Assembly (NCBI GenBank): GCA_963662525.1 | Contig: OY759717.1 | Coordinates: forward strand, 3,157,670-3,221,669 | Reading direction: 5' to 3' | DNA: 64,000 bases | From: Bacteroidales bacterium | GTDB lineage: Bacteria > Bacteroidota > Bacteroidia > Bacteroidales > FEN-979 | Shown here: positions 49,086-64,000 of the stretch, piece by piece | Numbering within the stretch: the first letter of the stretch is position 1 | How the letters are laid out: each line of letters begins with the position of its first letter | Position numbers and translations under genes: made by a program | Notes under the pieces: model-generated | Databases searched by the model: none | Told to the model about the DNA's origin: nothing | What the model saw: the letters and a program-made list of their open reading frames with translations, nothing else

Positions 49086-49869
49086 AAATTAAAATTTCAA
49101 GTCCGTCATAGGCCAGCTGGATGAAATCCGGCAGTTTTAGGTTAACTTCTTCATGTAAACCGACAAAATGGCTCAGATGTGTCAGGTAAGCTGCTTCTGG
49201 TCTTAGTTCTGACAGAATCTGCACAGCCTCGCTCACGGAGAAATGGGATACATGCTTGGAATTTCTCAGGGCATTCAGAACAATCACCCTGGAACCCCTG
49301 ATCTTTTCCATTTCTTCCGGAGGGATATAACTGGCATCGGTAATATAGGTAAAGTCGCCTATCCTGAAGCCCATGACGGGCAGCTTTTCATGCATCACTA
49401 GGATGGGTATGAATTCAACTCCCTGTATACTGAAAGGAGCTTCCGTAATGGGATGGATGGTTAGCTGTGGTGCACCAAAATAGCGGCTTTCCGAGAAAAT
49501 GTAGGGAAATTCAATGCGTATGGCTTCCATTACCCTTTCTGTGCCGTAAATATCAATTTTTTTGTTCAGAACATAATTAAAGGCACGCACATCATCAAGT
49601 CCGGCAATATGATCGCGGTGCTCATGGGTGAATATGACCGCATCGAGGTTGGCCACATTTTCCCGCAGCATCTGTATCCTGAAATCCGGACCGCAGTCAA
49701 TGACGAATGTCTTTCCATTCACCTCGATCATAATGGAGGTGCGTAATCTTTTGTCGTGTTGGTCTGTGGAAGTACATACCGGGCAATCACAGGTGATCAC
49801 CGGTACGCCGATGGAGGTGCCTGTGCCGAGAAAAGTAATGCGAAGCTGGTTATGGATAAATTCTTTCAT
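49084..49869 (-). CDS. MBL-fold metallo-hydrolase (PhnP/GPMB-like)
   Basis: FLGTGTS, CxCxxC Zn ribbon (CDCPVC), HEHRDH motif. Confidence 0.75.
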   Translation of the reverse strand: MKEFIHNQLRITFLGTGTSIGVPVITCDCPVCTSTDQHDKRLRTSIMIEVNGKTFVIDCGPDFRIQMLRENVANLDAVIFTHEHRDHIAGLDDVRAFNYVLNKKIDIYGTERVMEAIRIEFPYIFSESRYFGAPQLTIHPITEAPFSIQGVEFIPILVMHEKLPVMGFRIGDFTYITDASYIPPEEMEKIRGSRVIVLNALRNSKHVSHFSVSEAVQILSELRPEAAYLTHLSHFVGLHEEVNLKLPDFIQLAYDGLEILI

Positions 49870-50798
49870 CAGAAAATCAGCTCGTCAACCTGTGCTTTAT
49901 CCGCCATGAGTTGCTTTTTTAATTCTTCTATTGTCCCGAGTACTTTCTCTTCCCGGATTCTCTTATGAAAAAGAATAGTCACTACCTGTCCTTCAATATT
50001 TCCGTAGTTTTCGAACAAATGCGTTTCAACCAGGGTGTCCAGTGGATTCGTTTCGTTTTTACGGATGAAACACATTCCTCTTGAAAAGCTGTCTTCTCCT
50101 ATCACGGTAACTGCATATACTCCGTTTGGAGGTACCAGTTTGCAATCTTCCTCGATTTTTACCGAGTAGCAGGGAAATCCTATTTCCTCAAGGATGGGAG
50201 GACTTTTTGATACCGGTCCTTTGATGATATACTGATGATCGAGATAAGCATTAGCTTTCTGGATATTCCCATCCTGTAAGGCTTTCCTGATCTTTGTGGA
50301 ACTGACCGATTCATTCTGGATATCCTGTTCGGGAATCTCTTCCACTTCAAATCCGTATTCATAGCCCAGCTTTCTGAGGGCATCATAATCCCCTTCGCGG
50401 TTGTGGCCAAAATGGTGGTTGAATCCGATGACTATTTTTTTCGCATGGAGCTTGCTAATCAGGATATTTCGGATAAAATCGACTGAAGTGATCTTGGAAA
50501 ATTCAAGGGTAAAGGTCACAATGATGAGGTTATCCAGGCCGGCTTTTTCGAGCAGCTCAATTTTTTCCCGCTGGGAATTGATCAGAAAAAGGCCTTTGCC
50601 TGCAGTTTCAGGATATAAAACTTTTCTGGGATGGGGATGAAACGTGATCAAGACAGTTTCTCCATCGATTTCATTGGCGATTTTTTTTAATCTTTGCAGG
50701 ATGACCTTATGGCCGATATGAACTCCGTCGAATGATCCAGTGGTGATCACTGCATTCCGGATTTCACCTGCCTGGTCGAAATCATGAAATATTTTCAC
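49869..50798 (-). CDS. ribF: Bifunctional riboflavin kinase / FMN adenylyltransferase
   Basis: GSFDGVHIGH, FHPHPR and a C-terminal riboflavin kinase barrel. GTG start; its stop overlaps the next start (ATGA). Confidence 0.9.
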   Translation of the reverse strand: MKIFHDFDQAGEIRNAVITTGSFDGVHIGHKVILQRLKKIANEIDGETVLITFHPHPRKVLYPETAGKGLFLINSQREKIELLEKAGLDNLIIVTFTLEFSKITSVDFIRNILISKLHAKKIVIGFNHHFGHNREGDYDALRKLGYEYGFEVEEIPEQDIQNESVSSTKIRKALQDGNIQKANAYLDHQYIIKGPVSKSPPILEEIGFPCYSVKIEEDCKLVPPNGVYAVTVIGEDSFSRGMCFIRKNETNPLDTLVETHLFENYGNIEGQVVTILFHKRIREEKVLGTIEELKKQLMADKAQVDELIF

Positions 50799-50810
50799 AG
50801 TATTAACTTT

Positions 50811-51452
50811 CTACTTAAATCGTTCGTCGTTTTTCTTGGCAAAAAATGCCACTTTCTCCAGGGAAGTTATCATATCATATTCTTCCAGGTAAACATAAGG
50901 AGGAACATTGAGTGGTTTTGGGGTATAATTCAGAATTCCTTTAATACCAGACAACACCATGGTTTCAGCGATTTCCGGGGCCTGTTCAGTGGGAACAGTG
51001 ATAATTCCGATGGAAATATTGTTTTGTCTGATGATATCAGCCATCTGGTTCATATGATAACAGGGTACTCCATCATAAACCCGGTTGATTTTTTCAGGGT
51101 TAATATCGAAAGCAGCAATGATGCTGAGTTTCGATCTTTTTCCTTTGAAATAGCTGATCATGGCCTTCCCCAGGTTCCCCAAGCCGACAACAGCTACCCT
51201 TTGTCCTTTTTCTGAATCAATGATCTTACCGATGAGTTCTATCAGTTCCTTGATATCATAACCCTTTCGCAGGTTTCCGGAGTACCCGATCAGCATCAGG
51301 TCCCTTCTCACTTGAACCGGAGTAATATGAAGCATCTGCGCAATTTCATGGGAAAATACATGGGTTTTTTCCTTGGAAAGGATCATTAGCAATGCACGAC
51401 GGTACTGGCTTAACCTTTCAACGGTCTTATGCGGTAAATTCTTTATGAACAT
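50811..51452 (-). CDS. rex: Redox-sensing transcriptional repressor Rex
   Basis: Collinear with B. subtilis Rex as I recall it: winged-helix N-terminus (VERLSQYRR, RRDL..IG..G..GKGY) and Rossmann motif VVGLGNLGKA, GILNYTP. Confidence 0.85.
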   Translation of the reverse strand: MFIKNLPHKTVERLSQYRRALLMILSKEKTHVFSHEIAQMLHITPVQVRRDLMLIGYSGNLRKGYDIKELIELIGKIIDSEKGQRVAVVGLGNLGKAMISYFKGKRSKLSIIAAFDINPEKINRVYDGVPCYHMNQMADIIRQNNISIGIITVPTEQAPEIAETMVLSGIKGILNYTPKPLNVPPYVYLEEYDMITSLEKVAFFAKKNDERFK

Positions 51453-52576
51453 GGTTTGTCGATTGGAAGTCTGAGTTTAAATGTGCTGCCCTGATCCGGA
51501 ATACTGGTCACTTCAATAATTCCTGAATAATTATCGATTAATTTCTTTACGATGGAAAGACCTAATCCGGTTCCGGTTATATTTTTAGTTTTTTCATTTT
51601 TTATTCTGACAAAATCATCGAAAATCTTTTCAAGATCAGCCGCACTCATTCCGATTCCGGAATCGACAACAGTAATTTCGATGCAACCTTCATTTTCCTG
51701 AGCAGTGCAATCCACGGTTCCACCATCCTTATTATATTTAATGGCATTGGAAATAAGATTGTTGAAGATAATTTCCAGTTCATCTGCATCAGCTTTGATC
51801 ATCAACTGTTCAGGTCCATGAAGAGTCATTTTCACTTCCCGTTGAATGGAGTAGGGACGCATGGTGTCCATGGCGGTTCTGATTACCTGGATCAATTCAA
51901 CGTCCGTGATATTTCTTTTATTTTTTCCGGATTCAACTTTTGTGAGGTCTAGGAGATCGAGGATAAGTGTACGCATCCCTTTAATCCTGTCAAGGGAACG
52001 GTCGATCATGACATCATAATCATCCAGGTTGTTTCCCTGCTGTCTTTCCCTGATCATTTTAAGGTAACCTTCGATAGCATTAAGAGGGGCTTTTAACTCA
52101 TGGCTGAGAACCGATAAAAAGGTAAAGCGGATCTGTTTCCCGGTATCCTGCAACTTGGTGGTCATCTTTTTCAGAAAGACCCGTTTGGTGATATTTTCGA
52201 TAGAGGATTTTAATTCCTGGGGAGTAAAGGGTTTCGGGATGAAATCATAGGCTCCATCACTGGTGGCTTTTACTGCCAGTTCCAGGGATGCATAGGAAGT
52301 AATCATGACAACTATAATGTTTTTTTGCTTCTTCTTAATATATTCTAGGACTTCTACTCCCTGGATTCCGGGGAGTTTATTGTCAAGAAGAAGAATATCC
52401 GGAATATCATTTTCAATGATTTCTATCCCGGCTTCACCGGTAGAAGCTTCAAGAACTTCAAAATCGAAGGCTTCATCCATGAAAGGATAATCGACTCTGA
52501 AGTTTCTTAAAATACGGCTTACTCCGCTTCGGATGCCGGGTTCATCATCAACGACGAGTATTTTCAGTGTTGGCAT
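51443..52576 (-). CDS. Receiver-histidine kinase (REC + HisKA + HATPase_c, no other sensor domain)
   Basis: REC (ILVVDDE..LLLDNKLPG..KPF), H-box SHELKAPL, N/G boxes (ISNAIKY, GTGLGLSIV). The last 10 nt overlap the rex start. Confidence 0.85.
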   Translation of the reverse strand: MPTLKILVVDDEPGIRSGVSRILRNFRVDYPFMDEAFDFEVLEASTGEAGIEIIENDIPDILLLDNKLPGIQGVEVLEYIKKKQKNIIVVMITSYASLELAVKATSDGAYDFIPKPFTPQELKSSIENITKRVFLKKMTTKLQDTGKQIRFTFLSVLSHELKAPLNAIEGYLKMIRERQQGNNLDDYDVMIDRSLDRIKGMRTLILDLLDLTKVESGKNKRNITDVELIQVIRTAMDTMRPYSIQREVKMTLHGPEQLMIKADADELEIIFNNLISNAIKYNKDGGTVDCTAQENEGCIEITVVDSGIGMSAADLEKIFDDFVRIKNEKTKNITGTGLGLSIVKKLIDNYSGIIEVTSIPDQGSTFKLRLPIDKPCS

Positions 52577-52597
52577 GGTCAGTATTTCACCCCAAAT

Positions 52598-52996
52598 TTA
52601 GTGGAAAATAAGCAATTTATCAATTTCCGCCTTCAATAGTTCAGAACGTATTCCTTTATCAAGGAAACAATCGGCTTTGATCCATTTCCGGTTGTTCTCA
52701 TCGTTGATATCGAAACTGATACCGGTTTCGGCAGCCACTCCCGTCGCAATAATGATGGGAACATCGGGATATTTCTTTTTCATTTTATAGCATAAGATGA
52801 AGCCGCTGTCCTCATTTTCCATCATCAGGTCAAGAATAGCAAGATCTGGTTTTGTTTTCTCAATCAGTGCTTCTGCCTCTTTCTGACCTTCAGCAGTAAT
52901 GGTTTTAAATCCGAACTTTTCCACTTTCAACTTCAATTGAAAAAGATAATCCTGATCGTCATCCACGATCAGAATAGTTATGTTCCCAGGCTTCAT
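52598..52996 (-). CDS. Stand-alone response-regulator receiver domain protein
   Basis: ILIVDDD..LAILDLMM..PIIIATG; 132 aa with no output domain. Confidence 0.8.
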   Translation of the reverse strand: MKPGNITILIVDDDQDYLFQLKLKVEKFGFKTITAEGQKEAEALIEKTKPDLAILDLMMENEDSGFILCYKMKKKYPDVPIIIATGVAAETGISFDINDENNRKWIKADCFLDKGIRSELLKAEIDKLLIFH

Positions 52997-53003
52997 ATTC
53001 GAT

Positions 53004-53071
53004 TAATAATTAATAATTAATAATTTCTTTTACCAACTCACCAACTCACTAACTCACCAACTCACCAACTC
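53004..53071. repeat. Intercistronic tandem repeats: TAATAAT x3 (53004-53024), then the 8-nt unit ACCAACTC x5 (53032-53071)
   Basis: taataat taataat taataat ... accaactc accaactc actaactc accaactc accaactc. This forms most of the 76-nt spacer between the HydS-kinase stop and the REC start. Confidence 0.9.
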
Positions 53072-53072
53072 T

Positions 53073-55055
53073 TTACTTCCCTCTCGGAATGGTAACCCTG
53101 AACGTTGTTCCTGTTGTTCCTGCAGTTGGATCATTATTGGAGTCAACATGGATCTTGCCTTTGTGCATTTTAACAATTCCATAGATCAAAGCCAATCCAA
53201 GTCCGGTTCCCTTTCCCATTTCTTTCGTTGTAAAAAACGGAGTAAAAATTCTATCCATATTTGCTTTAGATATTCCCGTTCCTGTATCTGTAACCAAAAA
53301 GATTATTTCGCTTTCATTACCCTCTACACTCACTTTCAGGTTTCCGCCTGCAGGCATAGCCTCGATGGCATTTTTTTCCAGGTTAGTCATAACCTGCATC
53401 ATCTGATCAATATCGAGGCATGCCATAGGATCCGCAATATTCGGCTCAAATGTAAAGCTGACATTTTCAGGTTTTATAATAGAATTGAGGCTGTGTGCGG
53501 CAAATTTGACCACATCCGTTTCCGACAGGTTGACCTGGTTTTTTCTGGCAAAGTTCAATAATCCGCTGACGATTTTCTTACAACGGTCAGCTTGCTCCAC
53601 GATGAGTTTGAGATCCTCTTTAACTGCATCGTCTTCCTTTGCCTCGTCCATCAGAATATTACTGTACATAGTGATAACGCCAAGCGGATTATTCAGTTCA
53701 TGGGCAATACCGGCAGAAAGTTGACCCATATGGGCTAGTTTTTCGGACTGTTTCAAGGCGGCTTTTGCTTTGGCCAGCTTCTCATTGGAAATATTCAGGC
53801 TGCTGATGGAATCATGAAGTTTCTCAATGGCGAAAGGAAGACACATTTCTGTTTCAGCAAGACCATTCACGATGGCACTGGCATGATCGACACATGTATC
53901 GTATCCGCAGGCACCACAATTCAGATGATCCTTTGCGGTAAACTTTCCCATGGCATGAAGTGCTTCCAGGACTTCCTCGTTGGTGGGTGGTGCCAGCCGT
54001 CGGTCTTCAGGTGTGAAATGCTGGGATAAGTCAATGTCACTGAATTCATTCATTTCCTTATCCCACAATTCCTTATTGATATTCCTGAGTTTATTATATG
54101 CATATTTTCCAATAGCAGCGCTCCGTGAGAACCTTTTCCCTCCGGGGGATGTTCCGGGTCCCATGATGCAACCTTCACAGCATAATAACATCAGGTTCTT
54201 ATCTTTGATCAACCCGTCTTCATATTCTTTAATAGCTTCTTTGTAATTGATCCGTCCTTCAGCAACAATGACATGTTCTTCAGGGATGGTTTCTGCTCCA
54301 TTGGCGGTATGATATAAACCCCTGCTGATTGGGAAGATCGCTCCTTTTCCTGAATATGGAGGATCAAAATCAGAGGGTTCAACCTCATTAGGATGAATGT
54401 TCATATCCTGGAACATCTCACGAAGTTCAACAAAGGTAAGTACTTCATCAACCTCAAGGGTTTCGGCTTTTTTTGCAAAACATGGGCCAACGAAAACTAT
54501 TTTAGTCTCTTTGCCATATTTTTTACGCAGTATTCTTGTCATGGCAACCATGGGAGATGCAATCGGGGCAAGATTTTCGACGAGTTCGGAGTGGTAATGC
54601 CGGATAAAATAAACAATGGCTGGACAATCAGATGAGATTATCCCAACCCCATCATTTGATTTGATTTTTTTTTCATATTCCCTGGCAACGACATCCGCAC
54701 CAAATGAGACTTCGGTGACAAAATCAAAGCCAAGTCGACGCAGCATCCCGACTAAAACCCGGTGATTTTCTATTTCCGTGAACTCAGCAGGAAAACTTGG
54801 GGCTATACAAACGGCAATTTTTTTATCCGACTGTAAAAGAATTTTAACCTCTTCCGTTGAACGTAATGGATATTTTGCGCCCTGGCTGCAGACTTTAACA
54901 CAATTTCCACAACCAATACAGCGGTCGTTGATAACCTCAGCCTGGCCATTGATAATTTTTATGGCTTTAACCGGACATTCCCTGAGACAGGTATAGCAAA
55001 CCCGGCACCTGTCCTTCAGTGTAAAAACCAATTGCCTGTGATAAGAATGACTCAT
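53073..55055 (-). CDS. HydS-like sensory [FeFe]-hydrogenase domain fused to a histidine kinase
   Basis: N-terminal 2x[4Fe-4S] ferredoxin motifs. H-domain motifs are altered from the catalytic form (SSDCPA, GPCFAKKAE, LCCEGCIMGPG). A Cx2Cx4Cx16C motif follows (CGACGYDTC...EMC), then a coiled coil, H-box AHELNNPL and HATPase GTGLGLALI. The start overlaps the hydA stop (TAATG). Confidence 0.8.
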   Translation of the reverse strand: MSHSYHRQLVFTLKDRCRVCYTCLRECPVKAIKIINGQAEVINDRCIGCGNCVKVCSQGAKYPLRSTEEVKILLQSDKKIAVCIAPSFPAEFTEIENHRVLVGMLRRLGFDFVTEVSFGADVVAREYEKKIKSNDGVGIISSDCPAIVYFIRHYHSELVENLAPIASPMVAMTRILRKKYGKETKIVFVGPCFAKKAETLEVDEVLTFVELREMFQDMNIHPNEVEPSDFDPPYSGKGAIFPISRGLYHTANGAETIPEEHVIVAEGRINYKEAIKEYEDGLIKDKNLMLLCCEGCIMGPGTSPGGKRFSRSAAIGKYAYNKLRNINKELWDKEMNEFSDIDLSQHFTPEDRRLAPPTNEEVLEALHAMGKFTAKDHLNCGACGYDTCVDHASAIVNGLAETEMCLPFAIEKLHDSISSLNISNEKLAKAKAALKQSEKLAHMGQLSAGIAHELNNPLGVITMYSNILMDEAKEDDAVKEDLKLIVEQADRCKKIVSGLLNFARKNQVNLSETDVVKFAAHSLNSIIKPENVSFTFEPNIADPMACLDIDQMMQVMTNLEKNAIEAMPAGGNLKVSVEGNESEIIFLVTDTGTGISKANMDRIFTPFFTTKEMGKGTGLGLALIYGIVKMHKGKIHVDSNNDPTAGTTGTTFRVTIPRGK

Positions 55056-56773
55056 TAACTTGTTTGTTTTATGCGCGAAATATGCAGAAGTTCATGGTTC
55101 CGTTCACTTCCCTGCTTTCCAAGGAATTTTTCATAGATATCAGCCAAAACAGGATTTTTATGAGCAACCTTAATCATTTCTTCTTCATCCATGTCATAAA
55201 GTGCTTTCATGCGACTTTTTAGACTTTTCTCATCGCTTCCGATACGCTGACCGCCACCATTTATACAACCAAAAGGACAAGCCATCACTTCGATCAGATG
55301 AATATCATCTCTTCCTGACTCAATTTCGGAAAGCAAGCTTTTAATATTTGCAAGGCCGCTGACAGCCACGACATTGATAAGCTGTTTCCCGATTTTTATT
55401 TTAGCTTCTTTTTTTGTTTTTAATCCCCGCAAATCCTGAATTTTCAAAGGGCTGAGTTCCTGGCCAGTCATCATGAAATGAAGAGTGCGGAGAATCCCTT
55501 CCGAGGCTCCGCCCGAGATGCCAAAGAGTTTTCCTGCAGAACTGCACATGCTGAAAGCAGTATCGGTGGGTTCCGGCTCTATATTATTGAAATCAATACC
55601 AAGTAAATGAAAAAGTTTGACCAGTTCGCGGGTAGTCAGAACAGCATCCACCGCATGTGTTTTGTCATCTTTCAACAAGCCAATGGAGGCTTCATGTTTT
55701 TTTGCTGTACAGGGCATAACGGAAACGACAAAAACATTTTCAGGAGCATGACCTGCCGAACGGGAAATATAGTTTTTAATCATATTGCCCATCATTTGTT
55801 GAGGCGATCTTGCAGTGGAAAGGTGAGGTAGAAGTTCAGGACGAAGATCTTCAATATATTTCACCCATGAAGGACAACAAGCTGTGAAAAGCGGAAGTTT
55901 TCCATTTTTGTTTAAACGTTCCATAAGTTCAGTAGCCATCTCATTGATGTTTATATCAGCGGAGAAAGCAGTATCAAAGACCTGACGGAAACCAATTTTT
56001 TTCAAGGCTGTCCTGAGCAGGTTGATAATATCTTTGTTAGCCCTGATGCCAAGGTCTTCAGCCATAGAAGCCGGAACTGTCGGGGAAAACTGGATGACAT
56101 TGTGTAAGGATGGATTGTTCAGCGCTTCTATCACTGTATGAATGCTTGATCTCTCGGTAAGTGCGGCAGTTGGACAAACCATAATGCATTGTCCGCATTT
56201 TACGCAGGTCAGCGAATTCAAACCTTTATTATAAGTAGTCCCGATTCTGCTGTTGCTTCCTCTTCCCATAACATCAATGGCGGAGACACCGATCAATTCA
56301 TCACAGACTCTCATACACCGGCCGCATAAAATACACTTTGCGGGATCCCTCTCAATGCTGGTACAGGCTTTATCGATTTTTACCGTTGGGGGTTTAGCAT
56401 GATATTTTCTTTCCCTGATATTGAGTTCAACAGCCAATGACTGGAGTTCACAATTTCCGCTTCTTTCACAATAAAGACAATCATCAGGATGATTGGCCAG
56501 CAATAATTCCACGATGGTTTTACGGGCTTTCATGACCCGTGGAGAATGAGTGCGGATTTTCATCCATTCTTCTACATTATGTGAACAGGCAGGTACAAGT
56601 CCGGGTAAACCATCTACTTCCACAATACACATCCGGCATGCACCGGTAGGAGTAAAGCTGCTCATATTGCATAATGTGGGGACTTTGATTCCGTTACGCT
56701 GTAAAACTGTCAGAATGGTCTCCCCGCGTTTGGCAGATAAAGTTTGATCGTTAATTTCAATATTGAAGAGCAT
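55055..56773 (-). CDS. hydA: [FeFe] hydrogenase catalytic subunit HydA (HydABC type)
   Basis: N-terminal 2Fe-2S and NuoG-like clusters, 2x[4Fe-4S], and H-cluster motifs FTACCPSW, VMPCTAKKHE, EVMACPFGCINGGGQ. Confidence 0.9.
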   Translation of the reverse strand: MLFNIEINDQTLSAKRGETILTVLQRNGIKVPTLCNMSSFTPTGACRMCIVEVDGLPGLVPACSHNVEEWMKIRTHSPRVMKARKTIVELLLANHPDDCLYCERSGNCELQSLAVELNIRERKYHAKPPTVKIDKACTSIERDPAKCILCGRCMRVCDELIGVSAIDVMGRGSNSRIGTTYNKGLNSLTCVKCGQCIMVCPTAALTERSSIHTVIEALNNPSLHNVIQFSPTVPASMAEDLGIRANKDIINLLRTALKKIGFRQVFDTAFSADININEMATELMERLNKNGKLPLFTACCPSWVKYIEDLRPELLPHLSTARSPQQMMGNMIKNYISRSAGHAPENVFVVSVMPCTAKKHEASIGLLKDDKTHAVDAVLTTRELVKLFHLLGIDFNNIEPEPTDTAFSMCSSAGKLFGISGGASEGILRTLHFMMTGQELSPLKIQDLRGLKTKKEAKIKIGKQLINVVAVSGLANIKSLLSEIESGRDDIHLIEVMACPFGCINGGGQRIGSDEKSLKSRMKALYDMDEEEMIKVAHKNPVLADIYEKFLGKQGSERNHELLHISRIKQTS

Positions 56774-56781
56774 GCTGGTGT

Positions 56782-58731
56782 TTATTTGATATATATAGCA
56801 TTGAATTTACACAGGTCGAAACAGATGCCGCAGCCTGTACACTTTGCCTCCACAATAAAATGAGGCATCTTAATGCTTCCGATGATGGCATTTTCCGGAC
56901 ACTTTTTCTGACAGACATTACATCCGTTACAGGCATCCGGTTCGATATAGAAGGTTCTCAGGTCATGGCAGACACCTGCTACACAACGGCGATCGAAAAT
57001 ATGCTCTTCAAATTCTTCCCGAAACCATTTTAATGAACTAAGGACCGGGTTAGGGGCGTTTTGTCCAAGTCCACATAAGGAAGTATCCCGGATAACTTCA
57101 GCTAGATTCTCTAGCTGTACGACTCCTTTGAAACGTTCCAGCGTTTCGTGGGTGAATTCTTCTTTTGGTCGGCGGGTAATGGCATCGAGAATATCCAGCA
57201 TACGCTTTGTCCCTTCTCGGCATGGGATGCACTTGCCACAACTTTCTTTCTGTAAAAATTCCATAAAATATTTTGACAGGCTAACCATGCAGACTGATTC
57301 ATCAAGAACAATTAAGCCTCCAGGGCCAATGGTTGCACCTATTTCCTGAAGTGATTCGTACCCCATCTCTGTTTCCATATCCTTAGCGGGAATACAAACA
57401 CCCGATGGACCGCCCAGCTGAACTGCTTTTAATGGCTTGCCATTCCGGATACCTCCGGCAATTTTAAAAACGATATCTGAGAGGGTGATCCCCATGGATA
57501 TTTCAATAAATCCGGAATGAACAGCCATCCCTGAGACTGATAAAATTTTCGTTCCTTTACTTTCTTTGTTTCCAATCGCTTTAAACCATGATGGTCCATT
57601 CTCCAGGATTAACGGGATATTGGCAAGTGTTTCAACATTGTTGACAATGGTTGGCTGACCCATGAATCCGGATTCTGCCGGGTAAGGCGGTTTTGATTTG
57701 GGTATGCCGCGCCTGCCTTCCAGGCTGGCAATCAGGGCTGTTTCTTCACCGCAAACAAAGGCACCTGCCCCTTGACGGAGTTGGATCGAAAGATTAAATC
57801 CACTTCCGAATATATTCTCTCCCAGAAATCCATAATCCTTTGCCTGAAGAATGGCTCTTTCTAGGATCCCTAGTGGGTGGGTGTGAATGGATCGAACATA
57901 AATAAAGGCTGTACTTGCACCTATTGCATATGCGGCAATTGCAATTCCTTCCAATACCCGGTGAGGATCAGATTCAATGATTGCCCGGTCCATAAAGGCT
58001 CCGGGATCACTTTCATCGGCATTGCAAATCAAATATTTCTTGTCACTGGCAGTACCGAGGGCTACCTTCCATTTCCTGCCGGTATTGTACCCTCCACCTG
58101 CTCTTCCCCGGAGCTCACTCTGCTCAACTATCTCGCAGACCTTGTCGGCAGTGTAATTCAAGACTGTTTTGTACAGGGAACGATAACCTCCCCAGGCCAG
58201 ATAATCATTAATATTATCGGGCGAAATAATACCCGCATACCTCAGAATATTCCTATGTTGCAAGGCAAAGTAGGGGAGCTGGTCTATATAAGGGAGGTTG
58301 GCCCAATCCTCATGATGTTTGCATCTGTATTGTCCGAGTACGGAATCTTCCGGAATAGCCCGGTGAAATATGGAATGAAGCAGGTCTTCCACTTTATCAG
58401 CGGTTGCATGATGAAATGAAACCCTTGACTTTCCTGGTAGTTGCACATCAAGTAATGGCTCAGCTGAACAGAATCCGGTACATCCGACCGATATCAGTTC
58501 GGCCTCAATTTTATTATCCGACAGAAAATTTTCAACGGCTTCCCGGGTCTGTAATGCGCCAGATATTACACCACATGTAGCGGTTCCGATATAAATGATC
58601 GGCCGCTCAATCTTCTCTCGACGTAATAACATCAAACGGTCTTCAGTGTGTTTATCTAAAATGCCTGAGTAATTCTTCAGAACTTTATCTGTCAGAAATC
58701 CTTTGATATCAGAGGTGCTATTTGAGGGCAT
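56782..58731 (-). CDS. hydB: NuoF-like NAD(P)H-binding flavoprotein subunit HydB
   Basis: Thioredoxin-like N-terminus, GRAGGGYNTGRKW FMN/NADH site, CGKCIPCREG cluster, C-terminal 2x[4Fe-4S] ferredoxin. Confidence 0.9.
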   Translation of the reverse strand: MPSNSTSDIKGFLTDKVLKNYSGILDKHTEDRLMLLRREKIERPIIYIGTATCGVISGALQTREAVENFLSDNKIEAELISVGCTGFCSAEPLLDVQLPGKSRVSFHHATADKVEDLLHSIFHRAIPEDSVLGQYRCKHHEDWANLPYIDQLPYFALQHRNILRYAGIISPDNINDYLAWGGYRSLYKTVLNYTADKVCEIVEQSELRGRAGGGYNTGRKWKVALGTASDKKYLICNADESDPGAFMDRAIIESDPHRVLEGIAIAAYAIGASTAFIYVRSIHTHPLGILERAILQAKDYGFLGENIFGSGFNLSIQLRQGAGAFVCGEETALIASLEGRRGIPKSKPPYPAESGFMGQPTIVNNVETLANIPLILENGPSWFKAIGNKESKGTKILSVSGMAVHSGFIEISMGITLSDIVFKIAGGIRNGKPLKAVQLGGPSGVCIPAKDMETEMGYESLQEIGATIGPGGLIVLDESVCMVSLSKYFMEFLQKESCGKCIPCREGTKRMLDILDAITRRPKEEFTHETLERFKGVVQLENLAEVIRDTSLCGLGQNAPNPVLSSLKWFREEFEEHIFDRRCVAGVCHDLRTFYIEPDACNGCNVCQKKCPENAIIGSIKMPHFIVEAKCTGCGICFDLCKFNAIYIK

Positions 58732-58732
58732 G

Positions 58733-59197
58733 TTATACCGTTTTTTCTTTGATTGACCGGATGATTTTTGTGAGTTTTTCGGTATTCACCCGTGTATAAT
58801 ATTGTTCATTTACCTTGATAACAGGCCCGTGATCACAGGCTCCCATACAACTCACCACCTCGATGCTAAACTTTTTGTCACGGCTTGTATTCCCAGCTTT
58901 TACCTTTAAATGTTTTTCAAGTTCCTTCAGTAATGCAGTTGAGCCATGCAAATGACAGGCTGTCCCTTGGCAAACCTGGACATGATATCGCCCGGGCCGT
59001 CCATGGCGGAATTGATCATAAAAAGCAGCTACGGAATAAATTTTATTCAAAGGAAGACCCAGGTAAGCAGATACCATTTCCAAGGTGTCATCCGTCAAAA
59101 ACCCTTGTTCCTTCTGTATGTCCTGTAATATCGGTAGCAAACCCTCATGTTTGTTCGGGGGATACTTTTCCAGGATCTGGCTAGTTGTTATCTCCAT
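58733..59197 (-). CDS. hydC: NuoE-like [2Fe-2S] subunit HydC
   Basis: VCQGTACHLHG ... VSCMGACDHGPV are thioredoxin-like 2Fe-2S ligands. Confidence 0.85.
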   Translation of the reverse strand: MEITTSQILEKYPPNKHEGLLPILQDIQKEQGFLTDDTLEMVSAYLGLPLNKIYSVAAFYDQFRHGRPGRYHVQVCQGTACHLHGSTALLKELEKHLKVKAGNTSRDKKFSIEVVSCMGACDHGPVIKVNEQYYTRVNTEKLTKIIRSIKEKTV

Positions 59198-59223
59198 AAT
59201 ATCTAAGGAATCAATTATTCTTA

Positions 59224-59231
59224 CAAATATA
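59224..59231 (-). promoter_or_regulatory. Bacteroidota -7 promoter box TATATTTG (minus strand) for hydCBA
   Basis: The plus strand reads caaatata, 27 nt upstream of the hydC ATG. Confidence 0.45.
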
Positions 59232-59278
59232 CTAAAAGAATTTTTATTTTGAATGTTTTACCTGTGAAAAAATTAGCA

Positions 59279-59306
59279 TTGTGAATAAATAAACAAATAT
59301 TTGTTT
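59279..59306. promoter_or_regulatory. Candidate operator: Rex-box-like TTGTGAATAAATAAACAA (59279-59296) overlapping the perfect 16-bp palindrome AAACAAATATTTGTTT (59291-59306)
   Basis: Read directly. The left half-site matches TTGTGAA exactly, and the right half matches TTCACAA at 5 of 7 positions. The palindrome is perfect. Confidence 0.35.
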
Positions 59307-59361
59307 GCATTTCTTTATGAAAAAATATTTCATTATCTATACAACTCTGCTTACTAATTAG

Positions 59362-59369
59362 TATTTTTG
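59362..59369 (+). promoter_or_regulatory. Bacteroidota -7 promoter box TATTTTTG for the PAS-linked hydS paralog
   Basis: Exact TAnnTTTG match 11 nt before ATG 59380. The second in-frame ATG at 59386 may therefore be the real start. Confidence 0.4.
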
Positions 59370-59379
59370 GCCCATAGCC

Positions 59380-61254
59380 ATGACTATGGAAAGCATACCC
59401 CTTCTCCGGATTACTCACGACCTCTGTATCAAATGCTATTCCTGTGTGCGCATATGTCCGGTAAAGGCCATCCGGGTAGATGTTAAAACAGAACTTCCTT
59501 CCATTATACCAGAACGATGTATCGGTTGCGGCAGTTGCTACAGAGCCTGTTCACCTTCAGCCATTTTCTATCGTAGCTCCATTGAAGATACCAAAGCATT
59601 ACTTGCTTCAGGAAAACCCATTGCAGCCATTTGTGATCCCACTATTTCCGGCGAATTTCGCGATATTACAGATTACCGCAAATTTGTTGAAATGATCAAA
59701 CAACTTGGTTTTGCTTATGTCAGTGAAGTTTCATTCGGCGTTGATCTTGTTGCAAGAAAGTACAAAGAGCTTTTCGATAATTTCAAAGGAAAATTCCATA
59801 TCAGTGCCAATTGTCCTGCATTAGTTTTCTTTATTGAAAAATTTTATCCTCACTTGATTCCCAACCTCGTTCCTGTCGTTTCCCCCATGGCCGCTACCGC
59901 AAAAGTGTTGCGACACAAGTATGGAGAGGATCTGGGAATTGTTTTTATCGGCCCTTGCATAGCGACAAAAAATGAAGCCCTGACCTATTCCGGTGATGCA
60001 AAAATAGATTCCGTCCTGACTTTTGTTGAACTTAGGGAATTATTTACTCAACTTAATATCCGGGAAAGCCAGGTTGAATTTGCCGAATTTGATCCTCCAC
60101 TTGGTTATAAAGGTTCCTTGTATCCGATTAGTAACGGGATTATTCAGTCGGTGGATATCAACGAAGATTTGCTCACAGGGAACGTTATTACTACGGAGGG
60201 AAAAAATAATATGGTCGATGCCGTGAAAGAATTTGATTCCCGTATCGACATGATCAAACGACATTTTAATATTTTTTATGATGAGGGCTGCCTGATGGGA
60301 CCAGGAACCTCTCCCGCAGGAGAGAAATTCCTGCGCATGACGCTTGTGACAGATTATGCCAATAAACGTCTTGGATCCTTTGATAAAAAAAACTGGAATG
60401 CCGATATTGCTTCTTTCGCTAGTCTCGATCTTTCACGGCAATTTATTCCTGACGACCAGAGGTTACAGGTACCCTCAGATGAAAAGATTGAGGAAGTTTT
60501 AAAGATGATCAACAGGGAAGGTCAACTTCACAATGAAATTGGTTGCGAAGCTTGTGGGTACACCAATTGCAGAGAACTGGCTGTTGCTATTGCCCAGGGA
60601 CTCGCAACTACCGAAATGTGTCATGTTTTCAGTGGCCGGAACCGGCAAGAGTATATTCAGACTTTGCGATCAACCAACGAAAAACTGGCCAAAACAAAAG
60701 CTGCCCTGAAAGAGTCGGAAGAAAAAGCGAAACAAGAGCAGGAAACTCAGAAAGAATCATCGGAAATCATCTCTTCGATGTTGCAGAAACTGGTTTCGGG
60801 AGTTGTCATCGTGGATGAACATCTGAGAATTATTCAGTCAAATAAAGCCTTTATCCGTATCCTAGGGGAGGAAGCTTCCCTGGTGGATGAAGTGATCCCC
60901 GGTTTGGTGGGAGCTAACCTGAAATCCTTACTTCCGGTTCCTTTTTATAAAATGTTCTCCTATGTGCTTTCTTCCGATGAAAATATTGAAAATAAAGATG
61001 TGAATTACCAGGAAAATAAATTAAGCGTTTCCATATTTCCTATCCGGAGTCAGAAATTTGTTGGTGCAATACTCAGGGATATGTATGTCCCTGAGGTCCG
61101 AAAGGAGCAAATTATCAACCGGCTTACTGAAGTGATTGATGAAAACTTCGATATGGTTCAGAAAATCGCTTACCTGCTTGGTGAAGGAGCTGCAAAAACT
61201 GAACAGATGCTCAATTCTATCATTGAATCTCACAGAAATCCTCAAAAAAAATAA
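59380..61254 (+). CDS. hydS: HydS-like sensory [FeFe]-hydrogenase paralog with C-terminal PAS domain
   Basis: Paralogous to 53073-55055: 2x[4Fe-4S] N-terminus, SANCPAL, GPCIATKNE, FYDEGCLMGPG, Cx2Cx4Cx16C (CEACGYTNC...EMC), coiled coil, and a PAS-like C-terminus (VVIVDEHLRIIQSNKAF...). Confidence 0.8.
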   Translation: MTMESIPLLRITHDLCIKCYSCVRICPVKAIRVDVKTELPSIIPERCIGCGSCYRACSPSAIFYRSSIEDTKALLASGKPIAAICDPTISGEFRDITDYRKFVEMIKQLGFAYVSEVSFGVDLVARKYKELFDNFKGKFHISANCPALVFFIEKFYPHLIPNLVPVVSPMAATAKVLRHKYGEDLGIVFIGPCIATKNEALTYSGDAKIDSVLTFVELRELFTQLNIRESQVEFAEFDPPLGYKGSLYPISNGIIQSVDINEDLLTGNVITTEGKNNMVDAVKEFDSRIDMIKRHFNIFYDEGCLMGPGTSPAGEKFLRMTLVTDYANKRLGSFDKKNWNADIASFASLDLSRQFIPDDQRLQVPSDEKIEEVLKMINREGQLHNEIGCEACGYTNCRELAVAIAQGLATTEMCHVFSGRNRQEYIQTLRSTNEKLAKTKAALKESEEKAKQEQETQKESSEIISSMLQKLVSGVVIVDEHLRIIQSNKAFIRILGEEASLVDEVIPGLVGANLKSLLPVPFYKMFSYVLSSDENIENKDVNYQENKLSVSIFPIRSQKFVGAILRDMYVPEVRKEQIINRLTEVIDENFDMVQKIAYLLGEGAAKTEQMLNSIIESHRNPQKK

Positions 61255-61272
61255 TTTACTGTTGAACCCCTG

Positions 61273-61310
61273 CCTGACGGCAGTCAGGATTTACGATTCT
61301 AGATTTTTTT
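61273..61310 (+). terminator. Weak hairpin followed by an ATTTACG-family repeat fragment and a T-run
   Basis: cctgac-ggca-gtcagg (6-bp stem), then gatttacgattctagattttttt. The T-run is not adjacent to the stem, so terminator function is doubtful. Confidence 0.25.
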
Positions 61311-61316
61311 GCTCCT

Positions 61317-62501
61317 ATGGATGAAAAGTTTTTTATCGAAGTGACCTGCCAACAGAAAAATCATGGTGAAGCAAGGATATGCGGCGATGTCTTTATTTCA
61401 CGTAGGATCAAGGAAGAAGGAAGGATCATTGTCGTTCTGTCAGATGGTATGGGGCATGGGATAAAAGCCAATATGCTGGGAACTCTTACGGCCACTCTGG
61501 CTGTTAATTTCACTCAGGAACATAAAAGTGTCCAGAAGATTACTGAGATAATCATGAATACTTTGCCGGTCGACAGTGTGAAACATATGAACTATTCCAC
61601 TTTTACTATTGTTGAGATAGATGTGGAAGGAGATGTACGTATTCTTGAATATGAGAATCCAAGAACACTTATTTTGAGCGGGGCCCGCCTGCATGAACCT
61701 CTTTGGAATTGCGTAGTTCTGGAAGGGGATAGACATGCCGGGAAGGAGGTTTTAACCTGTACATTCCGTCCCCAGAAGGAAGACCGCATCGTTTTTTGTT
61801 CTGATGGTGTTACTCAATCAGGTCTTGGAAGTGACAAATATCCTACCGGTTGGGGAATGATCAACCTGGAAAAATATGTTCTGGATACCATCCATGAAGA
61901 ACATGATATTTCTGCTGTAAAGCTGGCTACACAGGTTGTCAATAAAGCCAACCTGAATGATAATTTTCACCCCCTGGATGATATCAGCTGTGGGGTTATT
62001 TATTTCAGGGAACCTCGCAAATTGATGATATGTTCAGGTCCTCCCCAGAATCCGGAAAATGATATATTCTTTTGTGGTCTGTTGAAGCAATTCGAAGGAA
62101 AAAAAATAATTTCCGGGGCTACCACCGCAGATATGGTTGCGCGTGAATGGAATGAAACAATAAAGGATAGCAATGTGATACTTGACCCGGAATTGCCGCC
62201 TGTTTCGCATATGAATGGCATAGAGCTGATTACAGAAGGTATCCTTACCCTGAGCAAGGTCAGTGAATTATTGAAAAAATATAACCAGAATTACAAGCTG
62301 GGAAAAGGACCTGCTGATGAGATCGTTAAATTCATCTTGGAGTGTGATGAGATTCATTTTCTTGTCGGAACAAATATCAATACAGCGCATCAGGATCCAA
62401 CCTTGCCTGTCGAACTGGAACTCCGTCGCACCGTCGTCCACCGCATTACACGTACCCTGGAAGAAAAATTCCTGAAAGAAGTTACGATGAGGTTTTATTA
62501 A
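61317..62501 (+). CDS. PP2C/SpoIIE-family protein phosphatase with an uncharacterised C-terminal domain
   Basis: GDVF...VVLSDGMGHGIKANMLG...FCSDGVTQ are SpoIIE-type metal-binding motifs. I cannot assign the ~160-aa C-terminal extension to a family. Confidence 0.75.
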   Translation: MDEKFFIEVTCQQKNHGEARICGDVFISRRIKEEGRIIVVLSDGMGHGIKANMLGTLTATLAVNFTQEHKSVQKITEIIMNTLPVDSVKHMNYSTFTIVEIDVEGDVRILEYENPRTLILSGARLHEPLWNCVVLEGDRHAGKEVLTCTFRPQKEDRIVFCSDGVTQSGLGSDKYPTGWGMINLEKYVLDTIHEEHDISAVKLATQVVNKANLNDNFHPLDDISCGVIYFREPRKLMICSGPPQNPENDIFFCGLLKQFEGKKIISGATTADMVAREWNETIKDSNVILDPELPPVSHMNGIELITEGILTLSKVSELLKKYNQNYKLGKGPADEIVKFILECDEIHFLVGTNINTAHQDPTLPVELELRRTVVHRITRTLEEKFLKEVTMRFY

Positions 62502-62518: not shown

Positions 62519-63583
62519 ATGCAAAAAAATAACATTCTTGTCGGCTTTTTTCTGCTGGGCATTATGGTATGCCATGGGCAGAACTATTTTAGAAGCGGTA
62601 TATTCCTGCATCATTCCACAGGAGCATGCATTTGGGGTCCAAATGGAAGCAGTACCAGTGTCCCCAATGAAATGGATGTCTATAATACGATCCATGGATA
62701 TACCGGTCCTCATGCAGTGACAATGAATGAGGAGTGGTGGGCACCCGGCGACAATGAATGGGCGACCCAGCATGCTTTCTTTGACGATCCCAGCCCGGTT
62801 TCAGGCATTGGATATTACCTGCCAGGGAATAAAATAATCGTTATTAAAACTTGTTTCCCGGCTTCAGCCATGAGTGGCGCAGGGCAGTCTTCCGATACGC
62901 TTAATCCTGGAATGAAAACTGTTTATAACTACAAGTGGCACTGGCGTCATATCGTCAGTGTAATGAACCAGCATCGTGAAAATTTCTTTGTCATCTGGAC
63001 AAATGCACCCCTGGAATCTGCTTCAACAAATGCTGCTGAAGCAGCGTTTTCTAAGTGGTTTTGCATTTGGGCCAAAGATACTCTTGCTACGGGCCTGGAT
63101 CCGGATTTTGGTGCTTTCCCTCCCAATGTTTACGTTTTTGATTTCTTCCGGAAGCTCACTGGCCCGGATGGGATAATGCGTTCAATATATGCAGCCGGAC
63201 CCGGCGATTCTCATCCGAATGCTGCGGCCACAGCACTGGTAGCTCCTCTGTTCGTTACTGAAATATTTAGTGCTTCAATTGCCTATGAAGCGACATCATC
63301 TATTCAACCTGGGGAAAATAACAAGGATAAAAAAATTTCCATATATCCTAATCCATGTCAGGATGAAACGTATATATGTTTTTCACTGCCTGATTTTCAA
63401 AAGGTGGATATATCCCTTTTCGACCAATCAGGGAAAATGCTTGCTAAGATTATCGATGGATATATCTCTAAAGGGACTCATATACATACAGTCGCTCTGG
63501 GAATGCTGAATCAAGGTGTTTACCGCCTTGTCTATACCCATGGTATGGTGGTTGAAACAGCTACTTTGGCCATTGTGAGGTAA
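62519..63583 (+). CDS. Secreted protein with T9SS C-terminal sorting domain
   Basis: Signal peptide plus C-terminal ISIYPNPCQDETYICFSL...GVYRLVYTHGMVVETATLAIVR. Confidence 0.7.
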   Translation: MQKNNILVGFFLLGIMVCHGQNYFRSGIFLHHSTGACIWGPNGSSTSVPNEMDVYNTIHGYTGPHAVTMNEEWWAPGDNEWATQHAFFDDPSPVSGIGYYLPGNKIIVIKTCFPASAMSGAGQSSDTLNPGMKTVYNYKWHWRHIVSVMNQHRENFFVIWTNAPLESASTNAAEAAFSKWFCIWAKDTLATGLDPDFGAFPPNVYVFDFFRKLTGPDGIMRSIYAAGPGDSHPNAAATALVAPLFVTEIFSASIAYEATSSIQPGENNKDKKISIYPNPCQDETYICFSLPDFQKVDISLFDQSGKMLAKIIDGYISKGTHIHTVALGMLNQGVYRLVYTHGMVVETATLAIVR

Positions 63584-63659: not shown

Positions 63660-64000
63660 CTAATTGCTGTACTCAGCAACAATATCCTGAACACCCTCTG
63701 GGGATACACGTCCATAAACTTTTTCGCCAACCAATACAACAGGTGCCAGGCCACAGGCACCAACACAACGAAGGCAGCTCAAGGAGAATTTTCCGTCAGA
63801 GGTAGTTTCGCCAACCTGGATCTTAAGCTGCCGCTTGAATTCTTCCAGTACCTTTTCAGCTCCCCGCACATAACAGGCCGTACCCAGGCAGATTGAAATG
63901 GGATGCTCTCCTTTTGGAGTCATGGTGAAAAATGAGTAAAAGGTAACCACCCCATAAACATGAGCAACAGAAACCTTTAATTCATTGGCGATAACTTCCT
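63660..64000 (-). CDS. Second NuoE/HydC-like [2Fe-2S] subunit (5'-truncated by window edge)
   Basis: The frame is open to base 64000 (..EVIANELKVSVAHVYGVVTFYSFF..). ICLGTACYVRG ... CLRCVGACGLAPV are 2Fe-2S ligands. Confidence 0.75.
   Translation of the reverse strand, partial: EVIANELKVSVAHVYGVVTFYSFFTMTPKGEHPISICLGTACYVRGAEKVLEEFKRQLKIQVGETTSDGKFSLSCLRCVGACGLAPVVLVGEKVYGRVSPEGVQDIVAEYSN

Follow-up and report, generated by a model that had tools for sequence, protein, structure and literature searches.

Group C1 of the [FeFe] hydrogenases in HydDB, 'histidine kinase-linked (putative)', combines an H-domain with a histidine kinase and is presumed to sense H2; the class is defined by sequence clustering and has no characterised member (PMC5037454). 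Here, a 64-kb stretch of a Bacteroidales genome (contig OY759717.1; the window; whole-window GC content 42.8%) was analysed, in which the operon of a trimeric HydABC-type [FeFe] hydrogenase (hydCBA) is accompanied by two genes for HydS-like proteins, by kinase and phosphatase genes, and by the repressor gene rex. One HydS-like protein is fused to a histidine kinase (HydS-HK), and the other carries a PAS domain (HydS-PAS). HydS-HK is like the C1 class in its group C active-site signature and in its place in a clade of HisKA/HATPase fusions. It differs in the direct fusion to the kinase without a PAS domain, in the translational coupling of its gene to hydA, and in an invariant Asp in place of C299 (CpI numbering, used throughout).

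A PAS-containing HydS followed by a Ser/Thr phosphatase is known from Ruminococcus albus (Zheng 2014; Greening 2019, PMC6776011) and from the Thermoanaerobacterium hfsABCD cluster (PMC5707799, PMC11837493). These proteins are proposed to sense H2 and to regulate hydrogenase and fermentation genes, and genetic evidence exists for a regulatory role of hfsB (PMC5707799, PMC11837493). Those clusters occur in Firmicutes beside adhE and the gene of a ferredoxin-only monomeric hydrogenase (HydA2/HfsD), whereas the present cluster accompanies HydABC in Bacteroidota. The Bacteroidota PAS paralog lacks K358 and, in the window, one cluster Cys; it has about 620 amino acids (aa) and falls in a clade separate from the group of about 575 aa.

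Thermotoga maritima HydS (TmHydS; group C, M2f) and Thermoanaerobacter mathranii HydS (TamHydS; group D, M2e) consist of 2x[4Fe-4S], an H-domain, and Cx2Cx4Cx16C, with or without PAS, and are often encoded near group A enzymes (PMC10055695, PMC8163306). As in the present paralogs, C299, M353, and M497 are replaced, with Gly at M353 in TmHydS as here. Position 299 is Ala in TmHydS, Asp in HydS-HK, and Asn in HydS-PAS. The four Cys and the H-bonding residues are kept in TmHydS and not in HydS-PAS. These two characterised sensory examples have no assayable output domain.

The [NiFe] HoxBC-HoxJ-HoxA system of Cupriavidus necator (PMC5707799) resembles the circuit proposed here in that a low-activity hydrogenase module controls a histidine kinase governing hydrogenase expression. 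It belongs to an unrelated metalloenzyme family, its kinase is a separate subunit, and a cognate DNA-binding regulator, HoxA, is encoded there and none here. The hnd operon of Solidesulfovibrio fructosivorans (PMC10084766) is similar in having a predicted site of the TTGTGAA-N4-TTCACAA type in the promoter of a multimeric NADH-linked [FeFe] hydrogenase. In the present locus, rex is the distal gene of the operon that it seems to control, the operators are in tandem, and the arrangement is repeated at a second hydrogenase operon.

The tie to HydABC, the fused kinase cascade together with a divergent K358-less paralog and PP2C, the position of rex inside the operon that it seems to control, the occurrence in Bacteroidota, and the invariant Asp299 of HydS-HK set the module apart from these systems. 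The original prediction had proposed that H2 and NADH/NAD+ jointly control hydCBA and that no such circuit had been dissected experimentally. The literature searched held no experimental dissection or description of the module, in agreement with the second claim. The concept of the first was not new: earlier work had put forward joint Rex and HydS control of a bifurcating hydrogenase in R. albus and S. fructosivorans (PMC10084766). The module is widespread within its clade, was anticipated as a concept, and is untouched by experiment. It occurs across many anaerobic Bacteroidota of sediments, lakes, and digesters. Understanding it would explain how H2 output, which governs syntrophy and methanogenesis, is set in a major group of fermenters.

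Gene content and conservation of the module

The region from ribF to the PP2C gene is one copy of a ten-gene module, which is a conserved Bacteroidota unit and no peculiarity of the window genome. Genes and domains were called from the open reading frame map, Pfam, and NCBIfam, with structure models and Foldseek for the PAS region and PP2C. The genes are as follows (positions in the window).

58733-59197, minus strand: hydC1, NuoE-like [2Fe-2S] subunit (PF01257, 166 bits; TIGR01958, 153.5 bits, cutoff 142.4)
56782-58731, minus strand: hydB1, NuoF-like flavin mononucleotide (FMN)/NADH subunit with C-terminal 2x[4Fe-4S] (PF01512, PF10589, Fer4)
55055-56773, minus strand: hydA1, group A [FeFe] hydrogenase catalytic subunit (TIGR02512, 414 bits, cutoff 406)
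53073-55055, minus strand: hydS-HK, group-C-like sensory H-domain fused to HisKA-HATPase_c (Pfam domains)
52598-52996, minus strand: stand-alone receiver (REC), 132 aa (PF00072; DD...D56...T85...K113 read from the sequence)
51443-52576, minus strand: REC-HisKA-HATPase_c hybrid kinase, 377 aa (PF00072, PF00512, PF02518)
50811-51452, minus strand: rex, NADH/NAD+-sensing repressor (NF003995, 201.8 bits, cutoff 126; PF06971, PF02629; GLGNLG Rossmann motif)
49869-50798, minus strand: ribF, flavin adenine dinucleotide (FAD) synthetase/riboflavin kinase (PF06574, PF01687)
59380-61254, plus strand: hydS-PAS, HydS-like paralog with PAS (2x[4Fe-4S], H-domain, Cx2Cx4Cx16C, coiled coil, PAS)
61317-62501, plus strand: PP2C, RsbU/SpoIIE-type Ser/Thr phosphatase, 394 aa (PF07228)

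The gaps are 1 nt between hydC and hydB and 8 nt between hydB and hydA in the open reading frame map. At the hydA/hydS-HK junction, TAATG, the stop and start codons share 1 nt. The rex gene overlaps the preceding REC-HisKA-HATPase gene by 10 nt, and ribF follows rex after 12 nt. The earlier description of nine genes, their domains, the 1-8 nt gaps, the 1-nt overlap, and a 182-bp AT-rich region was reproduced throughout.

Conservation was investigated in two scans. The species-representative genomes were scanned with HydS-HK as query, and the window proteins were then mapped onto the 24 Bacteroidota loci obtained. hydCBA-hydS/HK was carried by 24 Bacteroidota species representatives, and hydS-HK stood directly after hydA in all Bacteroidota loci mapped. 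The order hydCBA-hydS/HK-REC-REC/HK was found in every species-representative locus with enough flank, including a Saprospiraceae metagenome-assembled genome. The full order, with hydS/PAS-PP2C, rex, and ribF, was found in about 15 species representatives (Bacteroidales). The scan of metagenome contigs took the PAS paralog as its centre, with identities as low as 52%; upstream flank of at least 9.3 kb was available at 37 loci and downstream flank of at least 6 kb at 38. All eight upstream genes (hydC to ribF) were present in 32/37 well-flanked loci, down to 52% identity, and PP2C lay downstream of hydS-PAS in 61/61 loci; therefore, the ten genes form a conserved unit. The hydS-PAS/PP2C pair was divergent from hydC1 in essentially all loci, Rex orthologs were 57-95% identical across syntenic loci, and both the stand-alone REC and the REC-HisKA-HATPase_c hybrid were kept in synteny. 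The gene order is thus common in the clade (about 15 representatives, 32/37 loci), as the original prediction had named as one way to be refuted, and the second half of that condition, prior characterisation, did not apply.

The best 120 homologs of each sensor, taken from among thousands, were full length, at least 72% identical, and encoded in Bacteroidota/Bacteroidales assemblies, often on contigs common to both sensors. Relatives of the window genome are annotated as Draconibacterium (Bacteroidales), in line with the earlier assignment to a Bacteroidota-like genome. In four more distant HK-type loci (L013, L016, L017, and L021), hydS-PAS, PP2C, and rex are missing, and hydG-hydF-hydE stands directly after the REC-kinase gene. 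The same loci carry a NarL-type response regulator (2-3 kb upstream) and an extra receiver upstream of hydC.

HydABC is predicted to be a trimeric NADH/ferredoxin-linked [FeFe] hydrogenase. The motifs sought for a HydABC-type enzyme were L1 TSCCPxW, L2 MPCxxKxxE, and L3 ExMxCxxGCxxGGGQ. HydA1 had canonical H-cluster motifs (L1 TACCPSW, L2 MPCTAKKHE, L3 EVMACPFGCINGGGQ), with NuoF-like HydB and NuoE-like HydC encoded alongside, a trimeric, group A3-like composition. Its score against NF040763 (A6) was 666 bits, under the cutoff of 765, and its best PDB match was T. kivui HydA1 (8a6t, E 1e-143). The group A proton pathway (C299, E279, S319, E282) was not intact in HydA1, in which the E279 position is Met (ININEMATE; MTIMEEATE in CpI). 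Glu is kept there in most HydA1 orthologs; three loci deviate (L012, L015, L022), one of which (L022) also lacks C299. The CpI variants E279A and E279Q had activities below 1% (PMC6226526). HydA1 of the window may be a slow enzyme or may use another proton route.

Residues 1-170 of HydB1 form a degenerate thioredoxin-like [2Fe-2S] fold, with a weak PF01257 match (E 0.2) and CGVIS in place of CxxxxC, whereas HydB2 of the second hydrogenase operon retains the canonical N-terminal domain. Since FMN is the HydB cofactor, co-expression of ribF with the module may be functional and not incidental.

Rex and the divergent control region

Rex had a winged-helix N-terminus and a Rossmann NADH domain. 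The following elements were located between the divergent genes.

59198-59379, unstranded: divergent control region, 182 bp, 22.5% GC; AT-rich, with a conserved block in the alignment of 15 regions
59263-59296, unstranded: tandem Rex-like operators, proximal TGTGAAAAAATTAGCA (59263-59278) and second TTGTGAATAAATAAACAA (59279-59296)
59224-59231, minus strand: putative Bacteroidetes-type -7 element for hydC1, TATATTTG, equal to TAnnTTTG; invariant TAtTTTTGT in 15 genomes
59362-59369, plus strand: putative -7 element for hydS-PAS, TATTTTTG, read from the sequence; matching a conserved cAAAtTTA block

The second operator was the only match with two or fewer mismatches to TTGTGAA-N4-TTCACAA in the window. 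In the alignment of 15 orthologous intergenic regions, both boxes formed the best-conserved block, TGTTTAnTTATTCACAnTGnTAAnTnTTTCACAA followed by TAtTTTTGT, with the invariant TAtTTTTGT about 25 nt downstream of the boxes in the 15 genomes. Within each related locus of about 20 kb, the Rex pattern was restricted to this same spot. Sites with three or fewer mismatches occurred at 4.2 per kb in 54 orthologous intergenic regions and at 0.19 per kb in the flanks, a 22-30-fold enrichment. The results suggested that Rex probably controls hydCBA via the conserved tandem operators, so that the earlier claim of NADH/NAD+ control is probably right.

Tandem Rex-like boxes were also present upstream of the second hydrogenase operon (locus L034, 19625-19659), which is probably co-regulated by Rex. 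We infer that Rex represses both hydrogenase operons and also itself, because rex is the distal gene of the operon. A scan for sigma-70 promoters and terminators gave nothing above shuffled expectation, with a model unsuited to Bacteroidota. TAnnTTTG, which we take to be the Bacteroides -7 promoter consensus, was used for the -7 elements.

H-cluster sites of the two paralogs and readings of the circuit

The H-domain alignment contained both sensors, HydA1, HydA2, HydS3 (the latter two from the second operon), and 144 representatives from an exhaustive search. H-cluster sites were read from MAFFT alignments; the PDB sequence alignments of both sensors end before the L3 motif. The site signature was taken at positions 299, 300, 353, 355, 358, 361, 497, 499, and 503. 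It was CCMCKEMCC in group A, ACGCKELCC in the dominant HydS type, DCGCKELCC in HydS-HK, and NCGCTEF-D-C in HydS-PAS. C299/M353/M497 were thus replaced by Asp, Gly, and Leu in HydS-HK and by Asn, Gly, and Phe in HydS-PAS. Both paralogs had the group C HydS architecture of N-terminal 2x[4Fe-4S], H-domain, and C-terminal Cx2Cx4Cx16C. In a crude neighbour-joining tree of H-domains rooted on HydA1/HydA2, both lay outside group A and within the HydS radiation. They are sensor-like and not catalytic, as had been proposed; a phylogenetic place among catalytic hydrogenases, which would have spoken against this, was not observed.

HydS-HK consists of Fer4x2, Fe_hyd_lg_C, PF04060 (Cx2Cx4Cx16C), HisKA, and HATPase_c, and fell in a clade of kinase (HisKA/HATPase) fusions of 650-680 aa. 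Asp299, K358, and all Cys (C300, C355, C499, C503) were invariant in its best 120 homologs. None of the 144 representative group C relatives had Asp at 299. C299D was the sole substitution that left CpI/HydA1 30-80% active (PMC6226526). The remaining group A proton pathway was not conserved in HydS-HK. By its residues, HydS-HK has a complete H-cluster site and groups with kinase-fused group C proteins. The H-cluster Cys ligands and H-bonding residues are reported to be conserved in sensory HydS (PMC10055695); HydS-HK has these conserved Cys and the Lys, and HydS-PAS has Thr at K358 and Asp at C499.

HydS-PAS consists of Fer4x2, Fe_hyd_lg_C, PF04060, and a weak PAS_9 match. Its modelled C-terminus is a long helix followed by a five-stranded PAS fold, for which Foldseek returned the PAS domains of Aer2, PYP, LOV, and FixL (E about 1e-6). 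The PAS domain assigned earlier is thus borne out. The 12 Cys of the three accessory clusters were conserved in its best homologs (119-120). The K358 position, Thr in the window protein, was Thr/Ala/Ser/Asn and never Lys, both in the best 120 homologs and in the 81 syntenic orthologs used for site-residue counts. The C499 equivalent was Asp in the window and Asp/Asn in every relative at least 70% identical; among the 81 orthologs it was Cys in 56, Asn in 13, Asp in nine, His in two, and another residue in one. An Asp also replaces the A230 equivalent beside the di-iron pocket. L3 of group C is C-x-G-C, one residue shorter than in group A; therefore, the substituted ligand is Asp and not Tyr. 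Tyr, as given by an ungapped reading, was ruled out by the larger alignment. Compensation of the lost ligand by the invariant Cys85 was rejected, as Cys85 is likewise found where members of the clade retain that ligand Cys.

In group A enzymes, di-iron insertion depends on Lys358, which holds the distal cyanide in place. Because HydS-PAS lacks this Lys (81/81 orthologs) and one cluster Cys (Asp/Asn in the closer relatives), a second H2 channel through it is doubtful, and the two-channel part of the original prediction is doubtful with it.

HydS-PAS belongs to a distinct clade of about 620 aa, apart from the main PAS-HydS clade of about 575 aa, and the basal member of its clade (P0251) is kinase-fused. 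HydS-HK and HydS-PAS are 37% identical over 537 aa, including the coiled coil NEKLAK(A/T)KAALK(Q/E)SE that precedes the kinase. We infer an origin of the PAS type within the kinase-fused lineage. A kinase is fused in HydS-HK, and PP2C follows HydS-PAS in all 61 loci. A side-by-side occurrence of groups C1 and C3, as suggested earlier, was not established, given the position of HydS-PAS outside the main PAS-HydS clade and the kinase-fused basal member. Two 50%-cluster representatives of the PAS-type clade had lost all four H-cluster Cys. In the full-length member P0242 (621 aa), the four Cys positions are D, D, G, and S; in P0252, a 451-aa fragment without the L1 region, none of the three visible ligand positions is Cys. 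Both are consistent with an H-cluster-independent function in the PAS-type clade.

The favoured reading is that a regulatory module conserved in Bacteroidota, of which the region is one copy, governs a trimeric NADH/ferredoxin-linked [FeFe] hydrogenase by the following mechanism; this is held to be somewhat more probable than improbable. At low NADH/NAD+, Rex on the tandem operators would repress hydCBA, itself, and the sensor genes; NADH build-up would free the operators. HydS-HK would be made together with the enzyme, and its intact H-cluster site (four Cys, the K358 equivalent, and Asp for the proton-relay Cys) would react with H2. Autokinase activity would then be set, via the coiled coil, by the redox state of the C-terminal [4Fe-4S] cluster. 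Phosphate would pass to the hybrid kinase's REC, to the stand-alone REC, or to both, a two-kinase cascade with its final output outside the module. HydS-PAS would be a diverged duplicate of the kinase-fused lineage that keeps the accessory FeS clusters and the signalling helix around a non-canonical pocket. It would be more likely to report redox or electron pressure, or to modulate its paralog, than to bind H2 via a standard H-cluster, and would control the adjacent RsbU-type PP2C.

Several points weigh against this reading. The Rex-like boxes lie in AT-rich sequence and are imperfect, departing from the 14 specified bases at 2 and 4 positions. Taken alone, the match count for the window is not significant, with 0.55 matches expected at two or fewer mismatches. 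We know of no experimental determination of the Rex motif of Bacteroidota. Continuity of the operon from hydC to rex/ribF rests on spacing only. Domain scans and syntenic loci showed no DNA-binding response regulator, Hpt, STAS protein, or Ser/Thr kinase in the conserved module. Both signalling branches are thus without an endpoint encoded in it, and the convergent control of hydCBA transcription by H2 that had been predicted misses a link. Transduction of an H2 signal has yet to be demonstrated for any group C hydrogenase; TmHydS and TamHydS, the only sensory examples characterised, were studied as enzymes (PMC11376134). All four Cys are kept in 56/81 syntenic PAS-type orthologs. The requirement for K358 is known from group A enzymes only, and [4Fe-4S] clusters can also be ligated by Asp and His. 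It is therefore conceivable that HydS-PAS holds a modified H-cluster.

The original prediction took both paralogs as true H2 sensors with different H2 ranges, whose His-Asp and PP2C outputs converge with Rex on hydCBA. Both paralogs do show the full HydS architecture with conserved accessory clusters and are strictly co-conserved with hydCBA, and most of the distant PAS-type orthologs keep the four Cys. The residues around the H-cluster vary among sensory enzymes and may tune sensitivity (PMC10055695), and the PAS and PP2C pairing is as in the proposed R. albus sensor (PMC6776011). This model is nevertheless regarded as unlikely: the K358 equivalent is absent in all PAS-type orthologs counted, an Asp lies at the A230 equivalent next to the di-iron pocket, and some clade members have lost all four Cys yet are still full length. 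In the window genome and the best 120 homologs the Cys ligand is replaced by Asp/Asn, and Asn is no usual FeS ligand. No transcription factor ties either branch to the promoter.

HydS-HK could instead be an accessory module of the HydABC complex that reads electron load or local H2 and reports flux rather than ambient H2. The 1-nt overlap with hydA (translational coupling), the invariable position right after hydA in Bacteroidota, and an invariant Asp at C299, a substitution compatible with turnover, fit this idea, and the N-terminal 2x[4Fe-4S] could exchange electrons with HydA or HydB. It is quite unlikely, however: physical association is not evidenced, a subunit of this kind is missing from the solved HydABC complexes (7p5h, 8a6t), HydS-HK has otherwise not kept the group A proton pathway, and co-transcription of sensor and target is common and does not imply a complex.

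A bolder version of the favoured mechanism makes HydS-PAS a 'pseudo-hydrogenase', derived by duplication from the kinase-fused sensor, with the canonical di-iron site lost and the FeS relay and coiled-coil helix kept. It would heterodimerise or compete with HydS-HK, gate the kinase by redox, and recruit PP2C. This is thought very unlikely. If true, it would be the first degenerate [FeFe]-hydrogenase domain serving as a regulatory adaptor, and one H2/redox circuit atop Rex control would link a His-Asp phosphorelay to a Ser/Thr phosphatase.

Under the favoured reading of a Rex- and HydS-HK-controlled module, the fused kinase would offer a direct biochemical read-out of H2 sensing, by autophosphorylation and transfer to two adjacent receivers. 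The altered-site paralog would be a natural internal control, and the Rex operator would let the H2 and NADH inputs be separated. Two natural experiments bear on H-cluster chemistry: the K358-less clade and the Asp that is invariant at the proton-relay position.

Signalling outputs and the second hydrogenase operon

HisKA and HATPase_c were present in both kinases and REC in both receivers, and the H-box His and the DD/D/T/K residues could be read. A hydE gene (9208-10311, minus strand; TIGR03956, 357 bits, cutoff 255) is divergent from an orphan LytTR-type response regulator gene (10385-11143, plus strand). This regulator, 41 kb from the module, is a candidate output of the kinase cascade. 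Neither hydG nor hydF turned up in the window.

The PP2C/SpoIIE phosphatase assignment made earlier agreed with both Pfam and Foldseek. The model of PP2C had a predicted local distance difference test score (pLDDT) of 82, with 3pu9, 5mqh, 3ke6, and 3w40 (RsbU/RsbX/SpoIIE-type) as top matches (E 1e-10 to 1e-12). The metal-binding residues D24, D43, D163, D221, and D222 were invariant in 38 homologs, as were the catalytic Asp/Gly motifs. A conserved C-terminal alpha/beta domain of about 160 aa gave only a weak methylglyoxal-synthase-like match in Foldseek and no Pfam match at E up to 10. No conserved third gene for a kinase or STAS protein followed PP2C, with only OsmC-like, Nudix, or type IX secretion system (T9SS) genes there, and no STAS domain occurred within about 30 kb of context. 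The Ser kinase and STAS substrate of a partner-switching system were thus not found nearby together; a SpoIIAB-like kinase occurs only in the second operon.

The second HydABC-type operon adjoins the window end. The earlier statement of one HydABC operon holds inside the window and not for the genome, in which this operon also brings a third HydS-like gene.

63660-64000, minus strand: hydC2, 3' end, last gene of the second HydABC-type operon (own-genome context; L030, L033, L034)

The operon extends beyond the window (L034, 11142-19540) in the order DRTGG, SpoIIAB-like kinase, HydS3, DRTGG, PHP, HATPase, small 2Fe-2S-like protein, HydB2, HydA2, and HydC2. HydA2 passes the NCBIfam A6 model (NF040763) with 908 against the cutoff of 765. 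The SpoIIAB/RsbW-like kinase has 139 aa (TIGR01925, E 4e-19). HydS3 (465 aa) has Thr at M353, all four Cys, no PAS, and a DRTGG/PHP/HATPase neighbourhood. Thr at M353 with four Cys and no PAS is the group D/M2e pattern (Land et al., PMC8163306), and HydS3 is a group-D-like sensor by these residues.

The second operon adjoins PP2C in only 9/38 metagenome loci; therefore, the PAS/PP2C pair belongs with the first operon. That hydS-PAS/PP2C is functionally part of the second operon, its place next to hydCBA1 being incidental, was rejected as the main interpretation on this count and is highly improbable: PP2C is convergent with hydC2 in the window genome and several others, and a SpoIIAB/RsbW-like kinase is the natural antagonist of an RsbU/SpoIIE-type phosphatase, but the pair and hydC1 are transcribed away from each other in essentially all loci, the control region between them is conserved, and neither operon encodes a STAS-type substrate.

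A gene for a protein with a T9SS C-terminal sorting domain (62519-63583, plus strand) starts 17 nt after PP2C. It is found at that position only in the window genome and two related loci (L005, L037) and looks like an insertion between PP2C and hydC2.

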